A DNA stretch of 32,000 bases from Acaryochloris marina S15 (GCF_018336915.1 NZ_CP064923.1:1380001-1412000); one strand, 5' to 3'; counted from the stretch's first letter, positions 1 to 18,182 are shown. Notes: generated by a model from the letters alone, not told the origin. Numbers and translations are program-made.

Positions 1-276
1 AAAAGGGCCAATTCCATTGCCAAAAGCAGAAGCAGCAATACCATTACTGGTGCAATCTGCAACTCCTCGACCAACAATACTTCGCCCTAAAGGATGAGTA
101 TTGACCTGTGTATTAACCAAAGAACCTTGTTGATTCAAATCGACAGCCGGATTCGCTGTGGATTGGGCATTGTTGGGAGCATCAATATTATTAGTGGTTG
201 TTTGGGCTAGAGCAGAATGAGATGAAATTGCTAAAAACCCAACAACTGATGCACAGAAAAGAAAACGAGGGCGCAT
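1..276 (-). CDS. secreted protein, N-terminal part only (gene runs off the window start)
   Basis: ATG at 276-274 preceded by GGAG (revcomp of 283-290). The frame stays open to position 1 (92 codons). The N-terminus MRPRFLFCASVVGFLAISSHSALA-Q looks like a signal peptide, followed by N/T/Q-rich sequence. Confidence 0.45.
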   Translation of the reverse strand, partial: MRPRFLFCASVVGFLAISSHSALAQTTTNNIDAPNNAQSTANPAVDLNQQGSLVNTQVNTHPLGRSIVGRGVADCTSNGIAASAFGNGIGPF

Positions 277-295
277 AAGTGAATTCTCCTGAATT

Positions 296-325
296 ATAAA
301 AGGGGCAACGGGATAACGTTGCCCC
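296..325 (-). terminator. Rho-independent terminator downstream of the 346-741 gene
   Basis: Perfect 9-bp stem ggggcaacg (302-310) / cgttgcccc (317-325) with a 6-nt loop. On the minus strand the hairpin is followed by TTTTATAATT. Confidence 0.6.
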
Positions 326-345
326 AAGAAATATACTTAATTCAG

Positions 346-741
346 TTAGAACGAGAAACCACCTGTTACTCTGTGGGTTTTGTTGATTCCAGAGTAATCG
401 TAGCTGTCTGTATTGTGTACGTTGGTTGTTCTGGAGAGCTTACCATCTTCAGTTGCAGAGCTGATAGTTGAAATGGTTGAGTGGTCAGTTTCCTCAAACC
501 AGACCCCATCTTTATCTCCAGATGTGGTGGTAGTTGCATCAACATGCTTAGTGGAGGTTGAACCTGCCCAGGTTGTAGCATCGTAGGTCTCATGAACATT
601 CACATTGGTTGTGGAATGACCGTTAAAGATGCTCTTGACTCTATAGCTGTTCTCAACATAGGACTCGCCAGCTGCAGCAGGTAATGCGGCAGCGCCAAGG
701 GAGATTAGGACCGCAAGAGGTGCGATTTTTTGAAGTTTCAT
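346..741 (-). CDS. small secreted Thr/Ser-rich protein of unknown function
   Basis: 131-aa ORF. Signal-peptide-like MKLQKIAPLAVLISLGAAALPAAAG, T/S/N-rich body, C-terminal GGFSF ending in Phe. Followed by an intrinsic terminator. Confidence 0.6.
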   Translation of the reverse strand: MKLQKIAPLAVLISLGAAALPAAAGESYVENSYRVKSIFNGHSTTNVNVHETYDATTWAGSTSTKHVDATTTTSGDKDGVWFEETDHSTISTISSATEDGKLSRTTNVHNTDSYDYSGINKTHRVTGGFSF

Positions 742-5524: not shown

Positions 5525-6004
5525 ATGAACGCTTTGTCTCTGCCCCTGCAAATACCTGGACTCATATTACGACCGTGGGACATCCAAGATGCAGGAGCAT
5601 TTCAAAAATATGCTGACAATCTAGATATCTGGCGGAATATGCGGGATGAGTTCCCTTGTCCCTGTACGCACCAGGATGCAGAACGGTGGATTGATCAAGC
5701 CCTTCACAGGGCTGATGGACTATATTGGGCAATTGCCACTGACCAAGAAGCCATCGGTTCCATAAGTCTGCTGATCCATGATGATATTCGTAGGTATTCC
5801 GGAGTATTAAGTTACTGGGTTGGTCAGCCTTTTTGGAGGCAAGGTATCGCCACAGCAGTGATTGCAGGGATTAGTGACTATGGCCTAACAGAACTCAACT
5901 TAATCAGAATCTATGCCAAGGTGTTTAGCACCAACCTGGGTTCTATCCGAGTGTTGGAAAAGAATGAGTTCAAACAAGAAGGATATTTTCGTAAAGGGGT
6001 GTAA
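5525..6004 (+). CDS. GNAT family N-acetyltransferase (RimJ/RimL-like), C-terminus apparently disrupted
   Basis: ATG at 5525 (the track's start at 5519 is TTG). LILRPWDIQDA, SYWVGQPFWRQGIATAVI and IYAKVFSTNLGSIRVLEKNEFKQEG are typical of RimJ-type GNATs. The expected C-terminal strand appears out of frame at 5994-6050 (see findings). Confidence 0.75.
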   Translation: MNALSLPLQIPGLILRPWDIQDAGAFQKYADNLDIWRNMRDEFPCPCTHQDAERWIDQALHRADGLYWAIATDQEAIGSISLLIHDDIRRYSGVLSYWVGQPFWRQGIATAVIAGISDYGLTELNLIRIYAKVFSTNLGSIRVLEKNEFKQEGYFRKGV

Positions 6005-6170
6005 AGAGGGGCAGTTTTTTGATTAAGTGGTCTATGCAAAAGTTGTTTAGTATCGCCAGAGCTATGGGCGAATTCTCTCGACTGTGAACCTTAAGTTTGG
6101 AATAGGGGGCTGAGAGAATCTCACCATGGCAAAACCCTTTGCTTACGCAGAGAGAGGCTGTTGCTATTCT

Positions 6171-9100
6171 TTACTTCTTGGCAGATACCTCTGGGGGAGC
6201 GGCTTTGATAATTCCACACAATTTCCGATCTTGGTCTTTGACCGTAGAATTGGTTCTTAGATAATCGTCTAATAGGTCACACCCTAGATCCATCAAGCGA
6301 TCAAAGTTAAGATTCCATACTCTCACCGTGCGGTCATCACTGGCGGAGGCGATGGTCTGACCATCCGGACTGAAACTGACGCCCCCCACACGACCACTAT
6401 GGCCTTCTAGGGTGGCTTTGAGCTGACCGTCCCAGCCCCATAGTTTGACCGTGCGGTCATCACTGGCGGAGGCGATGGTCTGACCATCCGGGCTGAAACT
6501 GACGCTCCACACACGACCGCTATGGCCTTCTAGGGTGGCTTTGAGCTGACCGTCCTGGCCCCACAGTTTGACCGTGCGGTCATCACTGGCGGAGGCGATG
6601 GTCTGACCATCCGGGCTGAAACTGACGCTCCACACACGACCGCTATGGCCTTCTAGGGTGGCTTTGAGCTGACCATCCCGGCCCCACAGTTTGACCGTGC
6701 GGTCATCACTGGCGGAGGCGATGGTCTGACCATCCGGGCTGAAACTGACGCTCCACACACGACCGCTATGGCCTTCTAGGGTGGCTTTGAGCTGACCATC
6801 CCGGCCCCACAGTTTGACCGTGCGGTCATCACTGGCGGAGGCGATGGTCTGACCATCCGGGCTGAAACTGACGCCTAACACACGATCGCTATGGCCTTCT
6901 AGGGTGGCTTTGAGCTGACCGTCCTGGCCCCACAGTTTCACCGTTCGGTCATCACTGACGGAGGCGATGGTCTGACCATCCGGGCTAAAACTGACGCCCA
7001 ACACACGACCGCTATGGCCTTCTAGGGTGGCTTTGAGCTGACCGTCCCGGCCCCACAGTTTCACCGTTCGGTCATCACTGACGGAGGCGATGGTCTGACC
7101 ATCCGGGCTGAAACTGACGCCATTCACCCAATCGGTATGGCCTTCTAGGGTGGCTTTGAGCTGACCGTCCCGGCCCCACAGTTTCACCGTGCTGTCATCA
7201 CTGGCGGAGGCGATGGTCTGACCATCCGGGCTGAAACTGACGCCTAACACACGACCGCTATGGCCTTCTAGGGTGGCTTTGAGCTGACCGTCCCGGCCCC
7301 ACAGTTTGACCGTGCGGTCATCACTGGCGGAGGCGATGGTCTGACCATCCGGGCTGAAACTGACGCTCCACACACGACCGCTATGGCCTTCTAGGGTGGC
7401 TTTGAGCTGACCGTCCCGGCCCCACAGTTTGACCGTGCTGTCCGAACTGGCGGAGGCGATGGTCTGACCATCCGGGCTGAAACTGACGCCATTCACCCAA
7501 TCGGTATGGCCTTCTAGGGTGGCTTTGAGCTGACCGTCCCGGCCCCACAGTTTGACCGTGCGGTCATCACTGACGGAGGTGATGGTCTGACCATCCGGGC
7601 TAAAACTGACGCCCAATACACGACCACTATGGCCTTCTAGGGTGGCTTTGAGCTGACCGTCCCGGCCCCACAGTTTGACCGTGCGGTCATCACTGGCGGA
7701 GGCGATGGTCTGACCATCCGGGCTAAAACTGACGCCTAACACACGACCGCTATGGCCTTCTAGGGTGGCTTTGAGCTGACCGTCCCGGCCCCACAGTTTG
7801 ACCGTGCGGTCATCACTGGCGGAGGCGATGGTCTGACCATCCGGGCTAAAACTGACGCCCAACACACGACCACTATGGCCTTCTAGGGTGGCTTTGAGCT
7901 GACCGTCCCGGCCCCACAGTTTGACCGTGCGGTCATCACTGGCGGAGGCGATGGTCTGACCATCTGGGCTGAAACTGACGCCATTCACACTACTGCTATG
8001 GCCTGGTATGCCTGGGGTTTGGAGGGGAAAGGGGGTAGTCGGTTGCCATAGCTTAATAGTATGGTCACTACTAACGGAAGCCATGGTCTTGTTTCTGCTA
8101 AACCGAACTTGGTAAATCCATCCCTGATAGCCTACTTGCGCGTTCTCTGAAGTTGGGAACACCAAAGGGGACAACCAATTTTTAAGACTCCACAGTTTCA
8201 CCATGCGGTCCGAACTGGCGGAGGCGATGGTCTGACCATCCGGGCTGAAACTGACGCCATTCACCCAATCGGTATGGCCTTCTAGGGTGGCTTTGAGCTG
8301 ACCGTCCCGGCTCCACAGTTTCACCGTGCGGTCCGAACTGGCGGAGGCGATGGTCTGACCATCCGGGCTGAAACTGACGCTATTCACCCAATCGGTATGG
8401 CCTTCTAGGGTGGCTTTGAGCTGACCGTCCCGGCCCCATAGTTTCACCGTGCTGTCCGAACTGGCGGAGGCGATGGTCTGACCATCCGGGCTGAAACTGA
8501 CGCCTAACACACGACCGCTATGGCCTTTTAGAGTGGCTTTGAGCTGACCGTCCCGGCCCCATAGTTTCACCGTGCTGTCCGAACTGGCGGAGGCGATGGT
8601 CTGACCATCCGGGCTGAAACTGACGCCTAACACACGACCGCTATGGCCTTTTAGAGTGGCTTTGAGCTGACCATCCCGGCCCCACAGTTTCACCGTGCTG
8701 TCCGAACTGGCGGAGGCGATGGTCTGACCATCCGGGCTGAAACTGACGCCATTCACCCAATCGGTATGGCCTTCTAGGGTGGCTTTGAGCTGACCATCCC
8801 GGCCCCACAGTTTCACCGTGCTGTCCGAACTGGTGGAGGCGATGGTCTGACCATCCGGGCTGAAACTGACGCCCAACACACGACCGTTATGGCCTTCTAG
8901 GGTGGCTTTGGGCTGACCGTCCCGGCCCCACAGTTTCACCGTGCTGTCCGAACTGGTGGAGGCGATGGTCTGACCATCCGGGCTGAAACTGACGCCCAAC
9001 ACCCAATCGGTATGGCCCTGCAAGCGATTGTATTCCTTGGTGTGGTAGAGGGTCTGGGCCATAGCAGCCACTACATCTGCTTTCCCCTGTCCCACCAGTT

Positions 9101-10784
9101 GGAATTGGTTGACCTGGCGGGCCGCTTCTAGGCCCTTCAAAATGGCTTCTATCGGTTGATGGCTAAAAAATCGAGCCTGGGAGAGGTTGGTCTTGGCCAC
9201 CACCGTTTGGATTCGCGCTTCTCGCCTACTCTTTTCCGCCCGTTGCCGCTGCACCGCTTCGCCCTGCCGGGCTCTGACTGCCGCAATTCGCTGTTGCTCA
9301 GCTTCCTGACGTTTGGTTTCCGCCAGCCGCTTTTGCCGGGCCTCTTCCTGGCGAGCCACAACCGCCTCTTGCCGCTTTTGTTCAGCAATTTGACGCTGCT
9401 GAGCTTCTTGCCGTTGGGCTGTTTCCGCCACTCGCCTGGCAATATTTGCCTGCACCCGCCGAAGATCAGCCTCCTGTCGTGCCCTATCGGCTGCTTGGCG
9501 TTCAAGGACTGCCTTCTTTCGTTCTGTATCAGCAACATCTCGCTGCTTCACCGCGTCCTGTCTGGCGGCTTCGGCTGCCTGATATTGGATCCAGATAAAG
9601 AAAGCTGAAGGAGCCGGAGCCATTAAAAAAGTGATCCCTAGACCCAAGGCTACCCGCTGCAAGCGTTTTTTCCAGTTAATGGGCAAGTGTCGCTTCACCC
9701 AGGTCTGATCAAACACTCGGTGGTAGATGGGATTCCGCACCTGTAGGTGCCCCTCGTCCTGGCGCACCACCCCCGACAACCGTAGATGGGACTGCACCAG
9801 GGACTGCTCCTCCACCGCTACCGGGTGCTGCTGCCGCCACACCTGCCGATAGGTCGTCAACCCCGCTGCCAAATCTGGCGACCGCTTTGTCAACATATCC
9901 CGGACAAACTGCAAATTGCTATCCTGCTGGCTCTCTTGCCCAAAAAAAGTGCGGTCCACCACCGCCGCCACCGCATCCTCAGACCAGTCCTGCGACTCCG
10001 ACTGCACCAAGGCTTGACATAATCGCTGGGTCAGATAGGGATGTCCCTCCGTCCACTCCAAGACCCAGCCCAGCACCTCGCGACTGGGCTGTTCCGCCAA
10101 CCCCAATCCCGCCATTAGGGGCATTGCTTCATCTAAAGAGAAGTCAGCTAAATCCACTCGCTGGCCGACATTAAAGGGAGTTCGGGTCGGATCTTGAATC
10201 AGATCGCTAGGCGTGGCGACCCCCAACAATACAAAGGAAAGCCGCCCCAGTTCAGGTTGGGTGGCCCGCGCCAAATAGAGGTAGCGAATAGCGGCAAAGA
10301 AATCATCCGTAAAGTTCAGCCTTAACGTCGAGTCAATCTCATCTACAAAAAAGACGACCGGCTCCTCCAGCTCCGACAGCACCACCTCTTGGAAAAAGCG
10401 CGTTAGCCGCTGGGTATCCCCCAGCTCCGACTGGCGCTGCCACCAGGCAATAACATCCGTATCGAGATCCAGTTCATCTTCAATAGTGGTCAAAATGCCC
10501 AGATACCATTTATCTGCCGAGACCTTAGTCCCCAACTGCTGCAAATCAATAATGACCGAGCGAATCCCCTCTGCTTCTAACTGCTTTGCAGTCTTGATCA
10601 TCAGGCTGGACTTGCCCATTTGCCGAGGGGTCAACACATAGGTAAAAATCCGATCCCGACAGAGAACCAAAAGTTCCTGATCCGCTTGGCGAGAGAGGTA
10701 AATCCCTTCTCCTGCCTGAACGGTTCCACCCACAACAAAGGGAGTCTGCTCAGCCACGAAGATGCTCCTGAAAATACTCCGCAT
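6171..10784 (-). CDS. STAND-type P-loop NTPase (AAA-like) - hydrophobic segment - charged helix - 22x WD40 repeat protein
   Basis: The long ORF is open to 10865 in the track. I prefer ATG 10784 (alternative GTG 10757), because upstream residues overlap the preceding gene and the conserved module starts at FVVGGT. Motifs: Walker A TPRQMGKSS, Walker B VVFFVDEID, TPFNVGQ, GHPYL. Then VALGLGITFLMAPAPSAFFIWIQY, an R/E/Q/A-rich ~135 aa stretch, 22 GH...WD units, and a tail NLNFDRLMDLGCDLLDDYLRTN that I recall as typical of cyanobacterial WD40 proteins (from memory). Confidence 0.9.
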   Translation of the reverse strand: MRSIFRSIFVAEQTPFVVGGTVQAGEGIYLSRQADQELLVLCRDRIFTYVLTPRQMGKSSLMIKTAKQLEAEGIRSVIIDLQQLGTKVSADKWYLGILTTIEDELDLDTDVIAWWQRQSELGDTQRLTRFFQEVVLSELEEPVVFFVDEIDSTLRLNFTDDFFAAIRYLYLARATQPELGRLSFVLLGVATPSDLIQDPTRTPFNVGQRVDLADFSLDEAMPLMAGLGLAEQPSREVLGWVLEWTEGHPYLTQRLCQALVQSESQDWSEDAVAAVVDRTFFGQESQQDSNLQFVRDMLTKRSPDLAAGLTTYRQVWRQQHPVAVEEQSLVQSHLRLSGVVRQDEGHLQVRNPIYHRVFDQTWVKRHLPINWKKRLQRVALGLGITFLMAPAPSAFFIWIQYQAAEAARQDAVKQRDVADTERKKAVLERQAADRARQEADLRRVQANIARRVAETAQRQEAQQRQIAEQKRQEAVVARQEEARQKRLAETKRQEAEQQRIAAVRARQGEAVQRQRAEKSRREARIQTVVAKTNLSQARFFSHQPIEAILKGLEAARQVNQFQLVGQGKADVVAAMAQTLYHTKEYNRLQGHTDWVLGVSFSPDGQTIASTSSDSTVKLWGRDGQPKATLEGHNGRVLGVSFSPDGQTIASTSSDSTVKLWGRDGQLKATLEGHTDWVNGVSFSPDGQTIASASSDSTVKLWGRDGQLKATLKGHSGRVLGVSFSPDGQTIASASSDSTVKLWGRDGQLKATLKGHSGRVLGVSFSPDGQTIASASSDSTVKLWGRDGQLKATLEGHTDWVNSVSFSPDGQTIASASSDRTVKLWSRDGQLKATLEGHTDWVNGVSFSPDGQTIASASSDRMVKLWSLKNWLSPLVFPTSENAQVGYQGWIYQVRFSRNKTMASVSSDHTIKLWQPTTPFPLQTPGIPGHSSSVNGVSFSPDGQTIASASDDRTVKLWGRDGQLKATLEGHSGRVLGVSFSPDGQTIASASDDRTVKLWGRDGQLKATLEGHSGRVLGVSFSPDGQTIASASDDRTVKLWGRDGQLKATLEGHSGRVLGVSFSPDGQTITSVSDDRTVKLWGRDGQLKATLEGHTDWVNGVSFSPDGQTIASASSDSTVKLWGRDGQLKATLEGHSGRVWSVSFSPDGQTIASASDDRTVKLWGRDGQLKATLEGHSGRVLGVSFSPDGQTIASASDDSTVKLWGRDGQLKATLEGHTDWVNGVSFSPDGQTIASVSDDRTVKLWGRDGQLKATLEGHSGRVLGVSFSPDGQTIASVSDDRTVKLWGQDGQLKATLEGHSDRVLGVSFSPDGQTIASASDDRTVKLWGRDGQLKATLEGHSGRVWSVSFSPDGQTIASASDDRTVKLWGRDGQLKATLEGHSGRVWSVSFSPDGQTIASASDDRTVKLWGQDGQLKATLEGHSGRVWSVSFSPDGQTIASASDDRTVKLWGWDGQLKATLEGHSGRVGGVSFSPDGQTIASASDDRTVRVWNLNFDRLMDLGCDLLDDYLRTNSTVKDQDRKLCGIIKAAPPEVSAKK
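6282..9017 (-). repeat. in-frame tandem array of 123-bp (41-codon) WD40 units: 7 near-identical + 1 degenerate + 14 near-identical
   Basis: Period 123 bp, measured directly (for example cggtcatcac at 6331 and 6454). Units share long identical runs such as ggcggaggcgatggtctgaccatccgggctgaaactgacgc. The degenerate unit spans about 8004-8156. Confidence 0.95.
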
Positions 10785-12276
10785 ACAGTCGACACCGAGG
10801 CAACACCTGCTGCCCCTCCCGCCGAACCAGCCCCGCCCCTCTAAGCTTAAAAAATAAATGTTCATCCGAGCAGGTCTGCTTCTGAATCACCTGGATCAGT
10901 CCAGCTCTTAAAGGCGTTTGGTCATACATCCGAAACAGGTGATAGCGCAAATGGTCGCCAAACGGTCCCCGATCCTCAATCGCCTCAGCCAACAACTGCT
11001 TCAGGGTATATTCTTCAGTTGCCAACAGATACAAGGCCCGTCGGATCAAATAGGGGTGGCCTTGCAACCAGTCCATTAGCTGGGTTAGCTCTTTTTTGTT
11101 GCAAGGTTGGCCATGACGCTGGTTGAGGTCGGCTACCTGCTCTGCCGTAAAATCCGTCAGCTCTAAGACCTGCCCCACATTAAAGGGAGACTGGGTTAAA
11201 TCGGCAATCAGTTGATAGGGTTCCGTCGACGTGACCAGAGCCAGGTCGAGCTTTTTCCAAACCTTCTTGCGAGCGCGGTTATTGTGCCAGCTACGCAGCA
11301 TACCAAAAAAGTCCGACCGAAACTCCGTACCAAAGATCGCATCCACTTCGTCCATGGCTATCACCACAGCAGTATCCAGCTCTTTGAGTAAATATTTAGC
11401 CAAATATCGGGTACAGCACCTGCCAGGGCTCAGGGCCTCATTCCAATAGTCGGCCACCCGATCCTCTAGCTCTAACTCATCCGTTAGCGCCGAGCAAAAA
11501 CCTTTAAAAAAGCCATCAGCACTAGCAAAATTGGTCTGGTCAAAGAGCTGGAAATCTAAAAAAGCAACGACTTTGTCCGCCTCAGTCGCTGCATTCATGA
11601 CTTGAATCAATAACGAACTTTTGCCCATCTGGCGCGGGCCTTTAATCGTGACGGTCACCCCGTCCCGTTGAATCGCCGATAAGGCCAACTGATCCGTTGG
11701 CCGCTGGATATATAAAGCCGAGTCAGGATCCATGGTTCCTTCCGGCAAATCTAGACTTTGGGGCTGGGCCGCATAGTTGGGGGGCGGTACCTTCATTTTC
11801 CCCTCAGGTTGACCAGGGTTGACCGTCTGCTCTGCAGCCGTGGGACTCAAACCATTCCCCGTCACCGCCTGCTGTAGCTCCTCAATCAGCGTTGGGGTGT
11901 CTTTTAAGCCTTTCCAAACAGCCCAGTTTATGCCATTTAAATAAGCACTCAGGGGATACTTAAATGGTTCAGAATAATCGATGCGTACGGGCAGAATAAC
12001 GGGTCGCCCCTGTTGCTCCTTGGCCAAATGGTGGGCCATTTCCAGTTCACCCTTCACCATTTCACTCTGGACAGAGCTGGTCGACAAAAACACAATCAAA
12101 AAATCGGTGCGCCGCAGCTCTTTCTCGATCCGTTCAGCCCAATGGGTCCCTACCCCCATCCGTTTTTGATCGATAAAGACATCATGTTGAATTTTTAGGG
12201 CCTGATATAAGGCTAGAGCCACGGGTTCATCTGGCTCAACATCTCGCTTATAGCTGATAAAAACCCTTGCACACAT
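10750..12276 (-). CDS. TIR-domain protein fused to a STAND-type P-loop NTPase (AAA-like), with no repeat/sensor domain
   Basis: 508-aa ORF. N-terminus MCARVFISYKRD...DVFIDQ...DFLIVFLSTSSVQSEMVKGELEMA is TIR-like (candidate catalytic Glu77). Then Walker A GPRQMGKSS (nt 11614-11640), Walker B VVIAMDEVD, SPFNVGQ and GHPYLIRRALY. The motif order is paralogous to the N-terminus of the downstream WD40 gene. Confidence 0.85.
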   Translation of the reverse strand: MCARVFISYKRDVEPDEPVALALYQALKIQHDVFIDQKRMGVGTHWAERIEKELRRTDFLIVFLSTSSVQSEMVKGELEMAHHLAKEQQGRPVILPVRIDYSEPFKYPLSAYLNGINWAVWKGLKDTPTLIEELQQAVTGNGLSPTAAEQTVNPGQPEGKMKVPPPNYAAQPQSLDLPEGTMDPDSALYIQRPTDQLALSAIQRDGVTVTIKGPRQMGKSSLLIQVMNAATEADKVVAFLDFQLFDQTNFASADGFFKGFCSALTDELELEDRVADYWNEALSPGRCCTRYLAKYLLKELDTAVVIAMDEVDAIFGTEFRSDFFGMLRSWHNNRARKKVWKKLDLALVTSTEPYQLIADLTQSPFNVGQVLELTDFTAEQVADLNQRHGQPCNKKELTQLMDWLQGHPYLIRRALYLLATEEYTLKQLLAEAIEDRGPFGDHLRYHLFRMYDQTPLRAGLIQVIQKQTCSDEHLFFKLRGAGLVRREGQQVLPRCRLYAEYFQEHLRG

Positions 12277-13586: not shown

Positions 13587-15260
13587 TTACTCAATTCTGA
13601 CAAAACCTGCTTGTTCGATGAGCTTTTGCCCCTGTTCGCTCAACATCAAGTCTGTATAGGCTTCTCCAATCAACTGTTCCCGGTCTTTATTCTCTTTGAC
13701 GATGACGTAGAGGGGGCGGGTAATGGGATAGCTACCATCTCGGAAGGCAGCTAAGTTAGGCTGATTACGAGCGGGGGGACAATTTTGGGTTGGCTTTCCC
13801 TGTTGGGGTGGTATCCGCTGATCTTGACTGAGACCTAAGGGAATGGGTTTGCCAATACATTGATAGAGCACTTCAGCTGCTGAAGCGTAGTAAATACCGC
13901 CAGTGGCACGGTTTAATTGGCGCAAGGCATCTGTGGTGGAGTAGATGGGGACAACGCTAGAACTAAAGGGTTCATTCTGCAGCACATACTCTTGAAAATA
14001 ATCAGCGGTGCCGGAATCTCCAGATTGGCGAGAAAAAGGAATAATATCTTGATCGGGGCCACCTAGCTGATTCCAATTGTTGATATTGCCTAGATAGATG
14101 TCTCGCAGTTGGGCAACCGTTAACCCTGGCACATTTAAGGAGGGGTGAACGACGACTGCGATACCATCCAAGCCGATAGCATGTTGGGTAACTTTGAAGC
14201 CTCTTTTGATGGCGATCGCATATTCTTCGTCATTGAGCGGTCGGGTGGATTGGGTAAAGTCAATTTTGCCATCCAAGAGCATTTTGATGCCTTGACCCGA
14301 ACCAGGCGTGCCCTTGACCGTTTCTACATAGCGTAATTGAAGGTTGGGATACACCTCTGCGATCGCATCTTCAACTTCGGGACGTATCAATGCCCAAGTG
14401 GCGCTACCACCATAGTTATAAAGCCCTTCTGGAACATCTGGCACCTCTGAAAAAGTGGGTGTGAGTGCCAAAGTAGCAGCGCCCTGACCGGGGCTGAGCT
14501 GGAGTTGGTTCGGCGACCGTAACCATCCCCAAAACCCTGCAATTAAGAGGAGCAACGTCACTAAGGATGCTTTGAGATAGAACTTGCTCAGCTTGGATTT
14601 CTGGATAGATGGGGGTTGAACGGGGGCAGGAGGCTCTTCGGGGCTCGACAACCGCTGCACGGAATAGGCCCGCTCTGGCAGGATGATGGTGGAGGTTTGA
14701 GGGTTTTCGTCTAAGTCTATGGGACAGCTTTGTCTAGATGTCGAAAACGCCATTTCTGTGGGTGTGGGTAATTTATGGGCCGGAACGGCACCATGGCGAT
14801 AGAAGGTCATCAGATCGTCGATCAGATCCTGTTCTTCCAGGGGATGATATCTCAATATCTCCAGGATTCGTCTGACCCGACCAATGGCCGTAGGCAAAAT
14901 ATTATCTTGCTGAAATCCAGGGAATAAATCTTCAGCGCCCTGTTCTAGAGCTAATCGCCGCTCAGTGGACAGGACTTTTTGGCGTAACCCTGCTGTCAGG
15001 ATCAGCTTGAGATCGGGGTAATTGTCGTGATACCACCGACAAACATCAAAGGCATTCAGTTGCTGAGCCCCTAAGTCCACTAACAGCAAGCCAATATTGG
15101 CCCGTTCAATGGCATCTCGTTGGCCTGCTAGTTGCGAAAAACTGATTCCGGCAGGCTCTTCAATGACTTCGATCTGCTGGGATTGTAGGGCTGTTGTCCA
15201 TACTTGAGCCTGAAATTTTAGAGGCTGTAGGAGCAGTACAGATTTGCTGGCGCTATACAT
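13587..15260 (-). CDS. receiver-like domain - TM helix - PstS-family (PBP_like_2) phosphate-binding domain protein
   Basis: 557-aa ORF. The N-terminal ~125 aa have a CheY-like layout (VLLLQP...GLLLVDLG...KLILTAG). One hydrophobic helix, VTLLLLIAGFWGWL. The C-terminal half has GGSATWALI...GTPGSGQGIKMLLDGKIDFTQSTRPL, typical of PstS-type periplasmic binding proteins. Confidence 0.7.
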   Translation of the reverse strand: MYSASKSVLLLQPLKFQAQVWTTALQSQQIEVIEEPAGISFSQLAGQRDAIERANIGLLLVDLGAQQLNAFDVCRWYHDNYPDLKLILTAGLRQKVLSTERRLALEQGAEDLFPGFQQDNILPTAIGRVRRILEILRYHPLEEQDLIDDLMTFYRHGAVPAHKLPTPTEMAFSTSRQSCPIDLDENPQTSTIILPERAYSVQRLSSPEEPPAPVQPPSIQKSKLSKFYLKASLVTLLLLIAGFWGWLRSPNQLQLSPGQGAATLALTPTFSEVPDVPEGLYNYGGSATWALIRPEVEDAIAEVYPNLQLRYVETVKGTPGSGQGIKMLLDGKIDFTQSTRPLNDEEYAIAIKRGFKVTQHAIGLDGIAVVVHPSLNVPGLTVAQLRDIYLGNINNWNQLGGPDQDIIPFSRQSGDSGTADYFQEYVLQNEPFSSSVVPIYSTTDALRQLNRATGGIYYASAAEVLYQCIGKPIPLGLSQDQRIPPQQGKPTQNCPPARNQPNLAAFRDGSYPITRPLYVIVKENKDREQLIGEAYTDLMLSEQGQKLIEQAGFVRIE

Positions 15261-15632
15261 TAAGTTGAGCAGTGCGGGCTGCTATTGAGTAAAGACGGTA
15301 CGCTCGAATTCTGGGCAGGTTCGACATCTAGGGTTTGTGTAAACCGTAAAGCCCAAGTCTAGCCACTGTGTTATTTTATGGCAAATTTCATACGAGTGAA
15401 AGAATAAAATGACATGATTTAAGGACTTTTAAATCTAGATCACCCCCGCTACACTTGAAGCGCGGTTAACTCGAAAGAGGATTCATTTGTCCATTTCTTG
15501 CAGGAGTCGCTGGGGTGGTAGAACTTGCTCCCTAGGCCCTTACTATGATAGGTACACAGCAAGCACCCGTCTCAATTTTGATTACCTTATAAAGAAGGTG
15601 ATTGCACACCCCACCCAGGTGAGGAAGATCTG

Positions 15633-18182
15633 ATGAAATCCAAAACTCTCAACACATCTATTTGGTACAGCGTTGTTCTCTCGACTTTGCTATTGAGTCC
15701 TGCGTTTGCCCAGTCTTCTTCATCACCTGCTGTCCCTGTCGTAGATCAGCAAGAGATGCAGCGGCTGTTGGAAGAATTGCAAAAGGAACGAGAAGGCCAA
15801 AAACAAGCCCAGGCAGAGGCGACTCAAGCCGTTAATCAAACCACAACTTTATTTAACTGGTTTTTAGTGGTGCTGGGGTTGATTCTGGCCACTGCCATTG
15901 CAAGTTTGATTCTCCTGCGACGGGCCGTGGTGCATGAGGTCGCAGAGGTGGTGCAAAAACACCTGCGAGAGATGCGGGACTTGAAAGGACATCTGGCGGA
16001 TGCAGCGGATGCTGTAGAGGTGATTCTGCAAAAGGCCGAAGATCTCGATACGGACTTACATCAAGAGTCGGAGCAGTTTCATCAAGACTTAACCAGCAAG
16101 CGCCAGCGGTTGTCAGATATGCTGGCAGAATTTTCCACCAAGCAACAGCAAATCCTCCATAAAATCGAAGGGTCATTGACGGATACGGAAGCTGCGATCG
16201 CAACCTTTGAATCCGATTCAACCGCCAAATTTGCCACCCTAGATACGGAACTGAGAACCGAACAGGAAACGATTCTGGCCCATCTCAAACGCCTCGGTGA
16301 AGAGATTGAACCCCAGTTGTTTACGGTCGAGTCCGATGCCCAGGCTCAAAAAACAGAATTTCTAGACCGTTTGAAGCAGTCCGAGACAGATTTCAAAACC
16401 CAATTGTCCCAACTCTTAAACAAGAGCGAACAGGAGCAGGACAAGATCCTGACACGGGTCGAAAAAATGAGCAATGATTTTGGGCCGCAAATGTCGGCTT
16501 TACAAGCCGTTGCTCAAACGGAGAAAGAAACCTTAATTGGCTATCTTGCCACCTCTAAAGCGGAATATGTCACCCAACTGTCTGACCTTCAGCAAGAGGC
16601 CCGTAAACAGTGGGAACTGATTTTGCAAAATCTCAAACAGCTAGAAAGTGATTTCACCCCCCAGCTTGAGGAGATTGAAGGCCAGCTCCAGGTGAAGGCG
16701 AACGAGAAAAAAGATTCATTCCTCCTGCGTCTCAAACAGGTCGGTACCGAAATTACCCGTCAGCTCACAGAAGCGCAAGAAACCTTCCAATCCCAGGCCA
16801 GTGAGACACTGCAACGGCTCCAGGTACAAGAGTCTGAATTCACGACTCAGCTATTCAACTACAGAACTCAGTTAGATACTGAAAAGACCAATGCCCTAGC
16901 CGATGTTCAGGCCCTGACTGACAATGCCTCTACTCTGCTGGTAGACCTAAAGACAGAGGTGCAAACGACCCAAGAGCAGGCGGTTCAAGACCTCGAAGCG
17001 CTGACCCTACAGGTGTCCAGTCAGCTGGCCGACTTGAAGACGAATTTGCAAGGTTCCCAAGAGCAAACCCAGCAGTCTTTGCAAGCCATAGAAGCGAAAA
17101 CAGAACAGGATCTAGCGACCATTACAACGGATGCCCAAGCTCGCAAAGATCAGATTCTCAAACAGCTAGCAGCCCTATCTCCAGCCCAGCTCGCTGGAGA
17201 CGCCGTGGCAGAAATTGATCAGAAATTGCAGACGGCATTGGGGCCTTTAGAGCGCCTACAGGCCAATCATCCCGATCTATTCCTGGATGTTGCGGACTAT
17301 ATCCGGCAAGGAGACGAGCTACTAGCGAACAGCAATTTCCGCCAGGCCCTCTCTGTCTATAATCAGGCGTTGGAGCTAAAAGCCGATGATCCTCAACTTT
17401 GGTGCCAACGGGCCGAAACCCAGAGCGGGCTAAAGCTGTTTGAAGAAGCTGTCGGCTCCCTAGATAAAGCGATTGAGCTGACCCCAGAGGATCCTAAGCT
17501 TTGGCAACGCCGAGGCCAAGTGTTGAAGGACTTACAGCGATATGAAGGCGCGCTCGGGGCTTTCAAAGAAGCGGCAAAGCTGCAGCCGGAAGAGCCCCAC
17601 AACTGGATGGACTGTGGCACTTTACTAGAGCGTCTCCAGCGCTGGGATGAAGCCCTCTCTACCTATGACCGTGTGATTGCCATTGAACCGAACCATCGCA
17701 ATGCCTGGATGAATCGAGGATTTGTGATGGGCATCCTCCAACGTCATGAAGATGCCTTTGCCTCGTTTGATCATGTCGTTCAACATGAATCTGAGGATGC
17801 TGCTGCCTGGTTGAATCGGGGATTAGCTCTGCAAGTTTTAGAACGCCATGAAGAAGCGTTTGAGTCCTTTGAACATACCGTTAATCATAAGCCTGAAGCC
17901 TATAAAGCCTGGAGCCATCGAGGGTATGCCCTGATCAAGCTAGAACGTGATCGTGATGCTCTGGTTAGCCTCAACAAAGCCCTAGAGATTAATGCGGATT
18001 ACCCCAATGCTTACTATGGCAAAGCAGTCTGCTATGTCCTCCAAGGTGAGACAGCCTTAGGTTTAGAAAATCTAGAGCGGGCCATCAAGCTGAACCCAAG
18101 CTTTCGAGAACAAGCCCGCAGTGATACTCACTTCGTTGATTTTCGTGAGGATGAATGGTTCCGTGAACTGGTCAACCGCTAA
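15633..18182 (+). CDS. membrane-anchored coiled-coil protein with C-terminal TPR repeats
   Basis: 849-aa ORF with GAGGAAG RBS. Signal-like N-terminus (LLLSPAFA-Q), TM LFNWFLVVLGLILATAIASLILL, ~450 aa Q/E/L/T-rich helical region with a 29-residue periodicity, then about 8 TPR-like units (for example FRQALSVYNQALELKADDPQLW, AWMNRGFVMG, AYYGKAVCY). Confidence 0.8.
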   Translation: MKSKTLNTSIWYSVVLSTLLLSPAFAQSSSSPAVPVVDQQEMQRLLEELQKEREGQKQAQAEATQAVNQTTTLFNWFLVVLGLILATAIASLILLRRAVVHEVAEVVQKHLREMRDLKGHLADAADAVEVILQKAEDLDTDLHQESEQFHQDLTSKRQRLSDMLAEFSTKQQQILHKIEGSLTDTEAAIATFESDSTAKFATLDTELRTEQETILAHLKRLGEEIEPQLFTVESDAQAQKTEFLDRLKQSETDFKTQLSQLLNKSEQEQDKILTRVEKMSNDFGPQMSALQAVAQTEKETLIGYLATSKAEYVTQLSDLQQEARKQWELILQNLKQLESDFTPQLEEIEGQLQVKANEKKDSFLLRLKQVGTEITRQLTEAQETFQSQASETLQRLQVQESEFTTQLFNYRTQLDTEKTNALADVQALTDNASTLLVDLKTEVQTTQEQAVQDLEALTLQVSSQLADLKTNLQGSQEQTQQSLQAIEAKTEQDLATITTDAQARKDQILKQLAALSPAQLAGDAVAEIDQKLQTALGPLERLQANHPDLFLDVADYIRQGDELLANSNFRQALSVYNQALELKADDPQLWCQRAETQSGLKLFEEAVGSLDKAIELTPEDPKLWQRRGQVLKDLQRYEGALGAFKEAAKLQPEEPHNWMDCGTLLERLQRWDEALSTYDRVIAIEPNHRNAWMNRGFVMGILQRHEDAFASFDHVVQHESEDAAAWLNRGLALQVLERHEEAFESFEHTVNHKPEAYKAWSHRGYALIKLERDRDALVSLNKALEINADYPNAYYGKAVCYVLQGETALGLENLERAIKLNPSFREQARSDTHFVDFREDEWFRELVNR

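Follow-up and report, generated by a model that had tools for sequence, protein, structure and literature searches.

Two overlapping genes at the locus

The window, a 32,000-nucleotide stretch of the Acaryochloris marina S15 genome (NZ_CP064923.1:1380001-1412000), carries two overlapping genes, here called A and B, whose features are listed in Table 1. Both open reading frames lie where the sequence-only reading had placed them and encode the domains it had assigned, i.e. a TIR domain and an ATPase in A, and an ATPase and 22 WD40 blades in B. The only uncertainty in the two frames is which of two codons starts B. The 8-nt overlap given by the GTG start was also seen in 5 of the 25 genome loci and in five metagenome loci; it recurs at L005, L012, L015, L018, L026, L028, L029, L033 and L034. 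The overlap of the reading frames points to co-transcription and probable translational coupling. The surroundings in the window are housekeeping genes, with no defence island there.

Table 1. Features of the A/B locus (positions counted from the first nucleotide of the window)
Feature	Position	Strand	Description	Basis
Gene A	10750..12276	-	TIR-AAA_35 putative executor protein, 508 aa, no sensor domain	ORF + Pfam
TIR domain of A	11911..12264	-	residues 5-122; TIR_2 E 1.6e-21	
Glu77 codon (GAA)	12046..12048	-	predicted catalytic glutamate of the TIR NADase	
AAA_35 module of A	10765..11748	-	STAND-like NBD, helical and winged-helix parts; residues 177-504; PF14516 E 3.8e-113	
Walker A of A, K219	11620-11622	-		
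Walker B of A, D309/E310	11347-11352	-		
A end/B start overlap	10750..10784	-	35 nt with ATG 10784, 8 nt with GTG 10757	
Gene B	6171..10784	-	AAA_35, TM helix, long helix and putative WD40 sensor, 1537 aa from ATG 10784; alternative start GTG 10757	ORF + Pfam
AAA_35 module of B	9708..10721	-	residues 22-359; E 2.5e-36	
Walker A of B, K58	10611-10613	-		
Walker B of B, D148/E149	10338-10343	-		
Transmembrane helix of B	9585..9650	-	predicted, single; residues ~379-400, VALGLGITFLMAPAPSAFFIWI; Kyte-Doolittle maximum 1.7	
Long helix of B	9165..9527	-	E/R/Q/A-rich, stalk or coiled coil; residues ~420-540; single helix of ~120 residues in AF2	
WD40 array of B	6282..9017	-	21 canonical 41-residue repeats and one divergent blade, giving 22 blades in three propellers	

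Gene A encodes a TIR domain fused to an ATPase module. Its product is identical to the Acaryochloris marina protein P0001, and its AF2 model has a mean pLDDT of 88.7. The TIR domain scores 77.5 bits against the Pfam TIR_2 model (cut-off 28), and its fold matches AbTir (7uxu, TMt 0.68 by Foldseek). The candidate catalytic residue proposed earlier, Glu77, stands, as it aligns with the glutamate in 'NYELD' of AbTir and with that of the SPARTA TIR, and 65 of 65 A-type relatives have it. NAD+ cleavage is the output we would predict for this domain. The AAA_35 match of A reaches 378.1 bits (gathering threshold 27), and the protein stops right after the winged-helix part of this module. The best fold match of A is the TIR-NLR RPP1 (E 1.4e-12, Foldseek), followed among others by the archaeal ATPases 2fna (TMt 0.59) and 2qen (TMt 0.57), Avs3/4, CED-4 and ORC/Cdc6.

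The product of B (AF2 model, pLDDT 82.5) starts with its own AAA_35 module, which scores 125.6 bits against the threshold of 27 and has 2qen, 2fna, ORC/Cdc6, MalT and Avs3/4 as its top Foldseek matches. The stalk beyond the membrane helix gives weak compositional matches to TolA and P83, leads into a two-helix cap (residues 544-581) and has a comparable counterpart in B orthologues. The WD40 array that follows is matched by Pfam in 21 stretches (E 3.5e-274) and appears at the DNA level as 21.7 copies of a 123-bp period (TRF); after it the protein ends in a short cap that has two Cys and reaches position 6174. The repeats share a mean nucleotide identity of 92%, and their variation is limited to 8 of the 41 positions, where the nonsynonymous to synonymous ratio is 680:67, versus 138:328 elsewhere. 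We take these eight to be surface positions of the WD40 fold.

The ATPase modules of A and B are paralogues by sequence comparison, with 29% identity over 349 residues (BLASTP, E 2e-36), and the earlier claim that effector and sensor are split over two paralogous ATPases is borne out. In neither lineage do the Walker A, Walker B and GHP motifs vary, and the Walker residues are kept in both window proteins. In each module a P-loop NBD is followed by a helical domain with the GxP motif and a winged-helix domain, as seen from the AF2 models and motifs. Foldseek matches across the modules include RPP1, CED-4, Avs3/4, MalT, Apaf-1 and MNS archaeal ATPases. The nearest structures of both modules are 2fna and 2qen of the archaeal MNS clade (SSO1545, PAB2304; Pfam ATPase_2). 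The TIR and STAND-like assignments thus agree with the TIR_2 and AAA_35 matches and with Foldseek. As to the NTPase family, the STAND-like fold and AAA_35 were recovered, but membership in NACHT or NB-ARC was not, with no Pfam match to either in A or B at E <= 0.01; AAA_35 is the best Pfam match, next to weak ones to ATPase_2, AAA_16 and AAA_22. AAA_35 is presumably the Npun2340/2341 family, which Leipe et al. are said to have placed within the MNS clade of STAND ATPases in 2004, and the two modules probably belong to this branch. The family is named after two neighbouring genes of Nostoc punctiforme, which suggests the same pairing there; the searched literature offered no functional account of these two genes.

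Pairing of A and B across genomes

The pairing of A with B is not due to chance. A B-type gene lies immediately downstream of the A-type gene in 25 of 25 genome loci, and in all five look-ups that started with a B-type protein the gene directly upstream was of A type, so that the predicted neighbour conservation was seen in 30 of 30 related loci examined. More distant AAA_35 clades are paired likewise (L030-L032). The A and B modules also co-diverge (Mantel r 0.83, a value reached by 0 of 2000 permutations). At least ten natural fusions unite A-type and B-type modules in one polypeptide, in both orders, e.g. B-TIR-A (P0241), TIR-A-B (P0249), TIR-A-B-TM (P0296), A-B-WD40 (P0334) and B-A (P0309, P0343 and P0349).

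The co-divergence and the fusions in both orders back the earlier suggestion that the two proteins may hetero-oligomerise, although synteny, fusions and co-divergence are also compatible with two homo-oligomers acting in series. The same three observations, as evidence for direct contact, could fit a toxin/antitoxin-like arrangement, in which contact between the ATPases would let B keep the TIR protein A in check until loss or sequestration of B freed A. The overlapping start, from which B is translated after A, and the intact ATPase motifs of both agree with such a scheme. However, one would hardly expect a simple antidote to be a receptor of 1500 residues with a diversified sensor array, and STAND precedents act by ligand-induced assembly; we regard this arrangement as very improbable.

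Membrane topology of B

B is, as judged from its sequence and those of its relatives, a conserved single-pass membrane protein. Of 140 relatives, 135 have a hydrophobic segment of ~22 residues at a fixed offset, a median of 326 residues past Walker A; its position is kept while its sequence varies. K/R residues are richer on its N-terminal flank in 88 relatives, versus 16 with the opposite, a moderate bias (3.7 vs 2.6 K/R).

The WD40 sensor of B is most likely extracytoplasmic, i.e. periplasmic, to judge from the domains that relatives, rather than the window protein itself, carry past the helix. One close relative has PAN_4 (63 bits) and then WD40 in the same protein; another B relative has a lambda-lysozyme homologue (E 7e-23); and a sister clade has Amidase_3 behind TM and WD40. 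PAN_4, the lambda-lysozyme-like domain and Amidase_3 after the helix are what make an extracytoplasmic sensor the most likely reading. Other post-TM domains in close relatives are weak PPC and Sel1 matches and faint CarboxypepD_reg/PEGA ones. The earlier view of B as an intracellular NLR-type sensor probably needs revision in view of the helix and the extracytoplasmic-type domains behind it. Against a periplasmic array stand the moderate size of the positive-inside bias and the fact that WD40 propellers of the canonical G-beta type are as a rule found in the cytoplasm.

The latter fact also favours a cytosolic split NLR, with both proteins in the cytoplasm, the hydrophobic segment tethering B or being buried, and the WD40 array binding an intracellular phage protein, as happens in Avs or Apaf-1-like STANDs, upon which B recruits its TIR partner. 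One relative without the TM helix has PAS and GAF instead, which are cytoplasmic-type domains, and in fold the STAND modules are similar to Avs3/4 and Apaf-1/CED-4; among bacterial Apaf-1-like STANDs, some have WD40 sensors (PMC13581612). Yet a single hydrophobic helix in 135 of 140 relatives must set the two ends of the protein across the membrane, the ATPase must face the cytoplasm, and PAN_4, the lambda-lysozyme-like domain and Amidase_3 occur on the WD40 side. A wholly cytosolic pair therefore appears unlikely to us.

Effector diversity and distribution

The N-termini of the A-type proteins vary. TIR is found in 46 of the 63 representatives, CHAT in 14, a Ser/Thr kinase in 8 and trypsin in 4, and PNP, calcineurin-like phosphoesterase and EAD7 also occur; in a Chlorohelix variant the A partner is Pkinase-AAA_35-LuxR HTH. 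Trypco1 was found as a neighbour at a related locus. The module is widespread in cyanobacteria, Chloroflexota and Acidobacteriota with a patchy distribution across phyla, and identity across phyla is ~60%. Copies were found on plasmids and beside Tn7-like genes, and some copies are disrupted by IS elements; at L029 these hit A and not B, which is uninformative as to whether B restrains A. No phage-borne copy was found among the relatives, and the neighbours of related loci gave generic PADLOC matches only, counted without a baseline.

Some of these data could be explained by a non-immune transmembrane signalling pair. B would sense an envelope, peptidoglycan or cell-cell cue, e.g. in filamentous or aggregating bacteria, and A would turn it into a physiological response such as NAD+ turnover, phosphorylation or transcription. 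The replacement of TIR by a kinase and LuxR HTH in some A-type proteins suggests that the module is a general transducer and not necessarily a death switch; moreover, relatives have peptidoglycan-related sensor domains, and many STANDs regulate transcription, e.g. MalT, itself a structural match of B. The cross-phylum identity is unusually conservative for a defence gene, and both this and the housekeeping setting in the window speak against a defence role. However, domains typical of death or conflict effectors dominate the outputs, i.e. CHAT, trypsin and TIR with its catalytic Glu in place; EAD7 and Trypco1 are adaptors known from described conflict systems (PMC7159879), and neither the patchy distribution, plasmids, transposon neighbours and IS-inactivated copies nor the surface-restricted variation of the WD40 repeats fits a non-immune pair well. 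We consider such a role quite improbable.

Comparison with known systems

The pair is a genuine variant of NLR-like systems, probably not described before, made of a transmembrane sensor STAND and a TIR executor STAND. Neither protein matched a system-specific model of PADLOC-DB v2.0.0 over its full length, and no Avs or NLR model matched. The partial matches were TIR-level ones at <= 33 bits, a WD40-driven match to HEAT-ARM_XIII and P-loop-only matches to PDC-S01. The sequence-only reading had not recognised the pair as a named system, and none was found for it in PADLOC v2 or in the searched literature.

Thoeris membership was rejected (ThcB4 34.9 bits vs 220, far under the cut-off; ThsB_TIR 20.2 bits vs 21.2). 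In a Thoeris-like scheme, infection would prompt the TIR domain of A to make a diffusible messenger derived from ADPR, and this would activate an effector, either B or an unlinked protein, without A and B forming a direct complex. A two-gene TIR operon is often a Thoeris variant (bioRxiv 10.64898/2025.12.03.692087), the TIR domain of A does match the ThsB and ThcB4 models weakly, and some Thoeris effectors share with B the presence of a TM helix. But B has a full paralogous ATPase and no domain recognisable as messenger-binding, such as SLOG, Macro or SIR2, and the repeated fusion of A and B in one chain argues for direct contact. The chance of a messenger-based scheme seems slight.

A close likeness in organisation is found in paired sensor/helper NLRs of animals and plants (NAIP-NLRC4; the NRC, ADR1 and NRG1 networks; RRS1/RPS4-type pairs), where sensor and effector are also split over paralogous STANDs and the active form is proposed to be a hetero-oligomer, as it is for A and B. 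Plant sensor/helper pairs are often genetically linked. The A/B pair differs in having AAA_35/MNS-like instead of NACHT/NB-ARC modules, a bacterial operon with overlapping reading frames, both ATPase motif sets intact and a membrane-spanning sensor partner whose sensor is probably extracytoplasmic. Single-chain STAND defence proteins (Avs1-7+, bNACHT, TIR-NLR/Rst_TIR-NLR) have an N-terminal effector, TIR among others, a STAND and a C-terminal repeat sensor, as A and B do combined, and the fold is like that of Avs3/4; in A/B, however, there are two genes with an ATPase in each, and a TM helix and stalk between ATPase and sensor.

A computational precedent is nSTAND2, which the available text of Kaur, Iyer, Burroughs and Aravind (2021, PMC8195603) describes as a mobile two-gene operon with a STAND core in both products, predicted to form a toroidal hetero-multimer with the effector fused to one partner. 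It resembles A/B as two paralogous STANDs forming a predicted heteromer, while its sequence family is unrelated (BLASTP E 3.1 vs the nSTAND2 alignment). Its effector-bearing partner has eroded NTP-binding motifs and GT4 or HEPN, and the system is mostly proteobacterial, whereas both A and B keep the Walker A Lys and the Walker B Asp-Glu; the same text makes no mention of a TM-anchored sensor such as that of B (PMC8195603).

Proposed mechanism and implications

We lean slightly towards a model in which A and B form one signalling machine for abortive defence, with B as a transmembrane receptor and A as a cytoplasmic TIR executor joined in a hetero-oligomer. The ATPase of B would be in the cytoplasm, while its TM helix and ~120-residue stalk would put the three propellers in the periplasm; A would be soluble and cytoplasmic, with a TIR NADase domain in front of its own copy of the ATPase module. 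A ligand could cluster the propellers or bind to their variable top face, and the B ATPase would be switched to an ATP-bound, assembly-competent state. On the cytoplasmic side of the membrane, the B module would then pair with that of A into a hetero-oligomer, either alternating or nucleated, for which NAIP nucleating NLRC4 offers an analogue. The TIR domains borne by A would thereby be gathered and activated through Glu77, and the cleavage of NAD+ would lead to cell arrest or death.

We speculate, more tentatively, that the pair may be a bacterial transmembrane innate-immune receptor, i.e. a prokaryotic sensor/helper NLR pair combining the topology of Toll-like receptors with the mechanics of NLRs. 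An extracytoplasmic sensor built as a solenoid or of repeats, a single TM helix and a cytoplasmic TIR assembly would be common to Toll-like receptors and B/A, but in the former TIR is a scaffold on the receptor chain, while here it is a predicted enzyme on a separate protein that would be recruited via its ATPase module, and the homology is in the TIR domain only. The diversifying WD40 array, or in relatives a peptidoglycan-binding domain, could survey the periplasm for invaders or envelope damage, so that sensing would come before, or independently of, genome entry, and the signal would reach the ATPase of B through the single helix. If this is true, surface-type and NLR-type sensing, which are separate in eukaryotes, would be joined in one ancient two-gene module.

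Domain architecture of the gene pair

Gene A encodes a TIR domain joined to an AAA_35 (PF14516) ATPase module and stops directly behind this module, without any sensor domain, while gene B encodes a second AAA_35 module followed by a hydrophobic segment, a long helix and WD40 repeats. The two modules are clear paralogues (29% identity over 349 residues, E 2e-36). The Pfam domains and this paralogy bear out the split TIR-ATPase/ATPase-WD40 gene pair proposed in the sequence-only reading of this DNA. Its motif and codon coordinates are all correct, including Glu77 (GAA at 12046-12048), and the 22 WD40 blades that it counted are all found, one of them being divergent. The two genes overlap by 35 nt with the B start ATG 10784 and by 8 nt with GTG 10757, and the 8-nt overlap is also seen in many related loci. 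The domains, the paralogy, the coordinates and the recurring overlap therefore confirm the original observation. The product of A is 100% identical to one A. marina protein.

Features of genes A and B and of two nearby genes in the window
Feature	Position (nt)	Strand	Residues	Size or content	Basis
Gene A	10750-12276	-		508 aa
TIR_2 domain of A			5-122		Pfam, E 1.6e-21
AAA_35 module of A			177-504	full-length	Pfam, E 3.8e-113
G-T-x7-Y-x2-R-x2-D motif of A	11692-11739		180-195
Gene B	6171-10784	-		1537 aa
G-T-x7-Y-x2-R-x2-D motif of B	10680-10727		20-35
AAA_35 module of B			22-359		profile match, E 2.5e-36
Hydrophobic segment of B			379-400	22 residues
Predicted helix of B			420-540	uninterrupted helix, then two-helix cap	AF2 model
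WD40 array of B, C-terminal				21 canonical 41-residue repeats and one divergent blade
Cap after last WD40 blade of B	6174-6300		~1496-1537	'DLGCDLL...RKLCG'
PBP_like_2 protein gene	13587-15260	-		557 aa
TPR protein gene	15582-18179	+		866 aa

The G+C content is 0.53-0.60 across B (0.59 in the WD40 array), versus 0.51 in A and 0.45-0.49 in the flanks (window 6001-11000), which could be due to the codon composition of the repeats or to a foreign origin. The window shows no mobile-element genes flanking the pair, and a promoter and terminator scan gave sites not above the level of shuffled sequences. The ORFs inside B at 9149-9538 (-), 9156-9608 (+) and 9887-10174 (+) have low-complexity translations and were rejected as mechanical artefacts; long alternative-frame or antisense ORFs of B fall mostly in the charged-helix region. 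Matches of B to TolA, P83 and PilP were rejected as compositional or repeat artefacts, the weak TolA match being compositional; the helix-plus-stalk design of B is similar to that of TolA. The gene adjoining the pair encodes a C-terminal PBP_like_2 (phosphate-binding-protein-like) domain behind a hydrophobic segment, its N-terminal ~200 residues having no assigned domain, and its linkage is not conserved in related loci. The TPR protein has its repeats only at ~580-840, and its N-terminal ~580 residues have no Pfam match.

ATPase modules and the TIR domain

The AF2 model of A (mean pLDDT 88.7) matches the TIR-NLR RPP1 (E 1.4e-12), Avs3, Avs4, CED-4 and ORC/Cdc6, as well as the archaeal ATPases SSO1545 and PAB2304 (2fna and 2qen, TMt 0.59 and 0.57). 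The model of B residues 1-640 (pLDDT 82.5) has the same archaeal ATPases as its top matches, followed by ORC/Cdc6, MalT, Avs3/4 and Apaf-1. By the fold matches of both models, the two modules are of the STAND/ORC type, with a nucleotide-binding domain, a helical domain carrying an invariant G-H-P and a winged helix, and their closest clade is MNS. A sequence search of the PDB gave no solved AAA_35 structure, and its RecA matches were limited to the P-loop. We suspect that AAA_35 is the Npun2340/2341 family of Leipe et al. 2004, whose name would come from a pair of neighbouring genes in Nostoc. Kaur et al. 2021 (PMC8195603) speak of an "MNS clade (Npun2340/2341 family)".

We aligned 65 A-type and 30 B-type proteins. 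Both lineages keep, without exception, the Lys of Walker A, the Asp-Glu of Walker B, GHP and a pair of arginines (R328 and R334 in A), and neither A nor B has degenerated into a pseudo-ATPase. Glu77 of the TIR domain, put forward earlier as the candidate catalytic residue, holds up: it is kept in 65/65 A-type relatives and lines up with the Glu that is catalytic in AbTir ('NYELD') and in the SPARTA TIR-APAZ. A G-T-x7-Y-x2-R-x2-D motif precedes the P-loop domain and is also invariant in both lineages (G180, Y189, R192 and D195 in A). Neither monomer model shows this motif well ordered, and it may serve as an arm between subunits.

Pairing of A and B across genomes

Protein A, used as the query against one genome per species, gave 25 loci in cyanobacteria, Caldilineaceae, Pyrinomonadaceae and an Abditibacteriota plasmid, with A-type genes 55-64% identical to A. 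At all 25, the next gene on the same strand has an N-terminal module 50-62% identical to that of B and only ~30% identical to that of A. Look-ups begun from B-type proteins, which came from a protein search, found an A-type gene directly upstream in 5 of 5 cases, in one of them (L029) split by two IS elements, so the two genes are indeed kept as neighbours elsewhere, as the sequence-only reading would have it. The distance matrices of the A-type and B-type modules are strongly correlated across the 25 pairs (Mantel r 0.83, 0/2000 permutations).

We searched exhaustively with the ATPase module of A and obtained 9,508 cluster representatives at 50% identity with E <= 1e-3, 2,178 of them with E <= 1e-30. 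Among the best 150 of the 9,508, at least 10 are single-chain proteins with one A-type and one B-type module in either order: B-TIR-A (P0241), TIR-A-B (P0249), TIR-A-B-TM (P0296), A-B-WD40 (P0334), A-B (P0281, P0359 and P0384) and B-A (P0309, P0343 and P0349). These fusions, being of the "Rosetta-stone" kind, are the most telling evidence of coupling. Together with the synteny and the co-divergence they argue that the A and B modules touch each other. A diffusible signal of the Thoeris type linking the two proteins is very improbable, given the shared ATPase module and the fusions. Two further proteins considered as fusions, P0121 and P0122, were rejected, both being tandems of B-like AAA_35 modules; P0122 has no TM helix after its second module and neighbours APH/EcKL kinase, nucleotidyltransferase and CYTH genes.

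More distant AAA_35 clades are likewise paired on three plasmids. On a Nostoc plasmid, Trypco1 is followed by Trypsin-TIR-AAA_35 and this by AAA_35-TM-WD40-Amidase_3; a Tolypothrix plasmid has HTH-TIR-AAA_35, then AAA_35-TM-WD40. On a Chlorohelix allophototropha plasmid (locus L030, 1777-8413) the two genes stand in reverse order, AAA_35-TM-WD40 (1469 aa) coming before Pkinase-AAA_35-GerE/LuxR HTH (738 aa), which has a 52% identical A-type module and an output other than TIR. This partner suggests that the paired ATPase core is able to act through phosphorylation or transcription rather than NAD+ cleavage. In L029 (991-6008) the A-type gene consists of a TIR fragment, two DDE_Tnp_1_4 IS transposases and an AAA_35 part, and the downstream B-type gene is intact and short; it looks like a decaying copy of the system.

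Membrane helix and location of the sensor

B is a membrane protein with a conserved helix. Among 140 B-type relatives, 135 have a hydrophobic stretch of ~22 residues, which lies a median of 326 residues downstream of Walker A; its position and character are conserved and its sequence is not. A lone helix of this kind has to leave the ATPase on one side of a membrane and the C-terminal region on the other, and the ATPase depends on ATP of the cytoplasm. The flanks carry 3.7 Lys/Arg on the N-terminal versus 2.6 on the C-terminal side, the N-terminal flank being richer in 88 relatives versus 16.

The domains that replace or accompany WD40 after the helix support a sensor outside the cytoplasm. 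P0174, a B-type relative, has PAN_4 (63 bits) immediately behind the helix and ahead of the WD40 repeats, and a sister clade has an Amidase_3 cell-wall amidase behind WD40. Two other relatives, P0134 and P0150, have a homologue of phage lambda lysozyme behind the helix (E 7e-23 to 3d3d/1am7). With Ile in place of the catalytic Glu ('AWTIGT' for 'AWSEGT'), it is probably an inactive, peptidoglycan-binding sensor. Other post-helix matches are weak PPC, Sel1 with DUF2610, and faint CarboxypepD_reg/PEGA. The sole full-length relative without the helix, on the Abditibacteriota plasmid, has PAS and GAF instead, domains that are typically cytoplasmic. From these homologous architectures, an N-in/C-out topology for B seems fairly probable. 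A split NLR wholly in the cytosol, with B as a cytosolic sensor, which the sequence-only reading can be taken to imply, does not sit well with a single helix that is conserved and has PAN_4, lysozyme-like and Amidase_3 domains behind it, and we regard this picture as unlikely.

The gene pair of P0134/P0150 at locus L033 (465-2288) adjoins Tn7-like tniQ/tniB/tnsB-like genes and an integrase. The short cap after the last WD40 blade has two Cys ~20-25 residues apart and is also present in the B proteins of L002, L005, L011, L014, L019, L020, L021, L025, L031 and L032; if disulfide-bonded, this pair would fit an oxidising extracytoplasmic location.

Variation among the WD40 repeats

The 123-bp WD40 repeats of B are on average 92% identical, and their amino-acid differences occur only at 8 of 41 positions (3, 4, 5, 7, 8, 21, 23 and 25). 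Nonsynonymous to synonymous codon differences are 680:67 at these positions and 138:328 elsewhere. The variable positions, which directly follow the GH dipeptide or lie on either side of the tight-turn Asp, presumably line the top face of the propeller. Because each holds just two or three residue types, the variation looks like shuffling of a few repeat types, not hypermutation. The pattern is reminiscent of fungal NLRs, whose WD40 repeats are highly conserved but diversified at the surface.

Effectors and genomic setting

The A-type proteins always end in the ATPase module and vary at the N-terminus, where 63 representatives carry TIR (46), CHAT (14), Ser/Thr kinase (8), trypsin (4), nucleoside phosphorylase (2) and calcineurin-like phosphoesterase (2). 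In some proteins the TIR is itself preceded by EAD7, CHAT, trypsin or a cyclase domain. This set is the effector vocabulary of the conflict systems in Kaur et al. 2020 (PMC7159879).

The pair could alternatively serve non-immune envelope or cell-cell signalling, a reading favoured by the kinase-LuxR variant, the high conservation and the housekeeping genes that surround A and B in the window. Against it speak the prevalence of TIR, CHAT and trypsin among the outputs, the presence of adaptor domains, and the related copies found on plasmids, beside transposon genes and disrupted by IS; we regard it as quite unlikely. A PADLOC census of 118 neighbouring ORFs gave generic kinase- and helicase-type matches only, and leads to no defence-island conclusion because it has no background for comparison. 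No copy was found in the phage genomes searched, and plasmids searched for DNA nearly identical to the locus gave no match.

Proposed mechanism

The coupling of A and B, their intact motifs and the conserved helix of B are observed. We infer the topology, geometry, trigger, enzymatic output and biological role of the pair to be as follows. B would be a single-pass receptor and A a cytoplasmic executor. Ligands would bind or cluster the external propellers, upon which the ATPase of B would become assembly-competent, pair with that of A and nucleate it. The TIR domains would thus be gathered, and Glu77-dependent NAD+ cleavage would lead to growth stop or cell death; CHAT or trypsin proteases or kinases may be co-deployed in relatives. 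That B would instead inhibit A has very little likelihood. The boldest reading, a periplasm-surveying hybrid of TLR and NLR logic, is offered tentatively, its chances being somewhat below even.

Relation to known systems and implications

In the known bacterial STAND/NLR-like defences, such as Avs and bNACHT, one cytosolic chain binds phage proteins intracellularly. The nearest functional analogue of A/B is given by sensor/helper NLR pairs, e.g. NAIP-NLRC4, and the nearest in topology by Toll-like receptors. The nearest published prokaryotic idea is nSTAND2, a two-gene operon for which Kaur et al. 2021 (PMC8195603) predict a hetero-multimer. It is a separate family in which one partner is inactive and the effectors are GT4 or HEPN, and we rejected it as the identity of A/B because of this inactive partner and the lack of sequence similarity (BLASTP E 3.1).

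PADLOC v2 models gave domain-level matches only for A and B, and NCBIfam profiles nothing specific. No description of a TIR-AAA_35 plus AAA_35-TM-WD40 pair was found in the openly readable literature searched, including Kaur 2020, Kaur 2021, the 2024 DGR paper and the 2026 Nature STAND and 2025 Thoeris surveys, and a text search on AAA_35/PF14516 gave nothing relevant. The pair matches no named defence system in PADLOC v2 or in the papers searched; the sequence-only reading did not recognise it as one either. A/B is a genuine two-gene module, intact and widely distributed, and is best placed among the NLR-like/STAND conflict systems as a probably undescribed form that is split, membrane-spanning and presumably heteromeric.

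The family is large, with ~9,500 cluster representatives of the ATPase module at 50% identity. In the loci examined, sensing and execution are divided between two co-evolving paralogous ATPases, with the sensor predicted to lie across the membrane. If our model is correct, the pair would be the first prokaryotic counterpart of sensor/helper NLR pairs and would tie periplasmic surveillance, either before entry or upon envelope damage, to a TIR effector. It would also offer a tractable system for STAND ATPase switching via a single transmembrane helix, and would assign a concrete role to AAA_35, so far an uncharacterised Pfam family, and to many of the near-identical WD40 arrays that abound in cyanobacteria.
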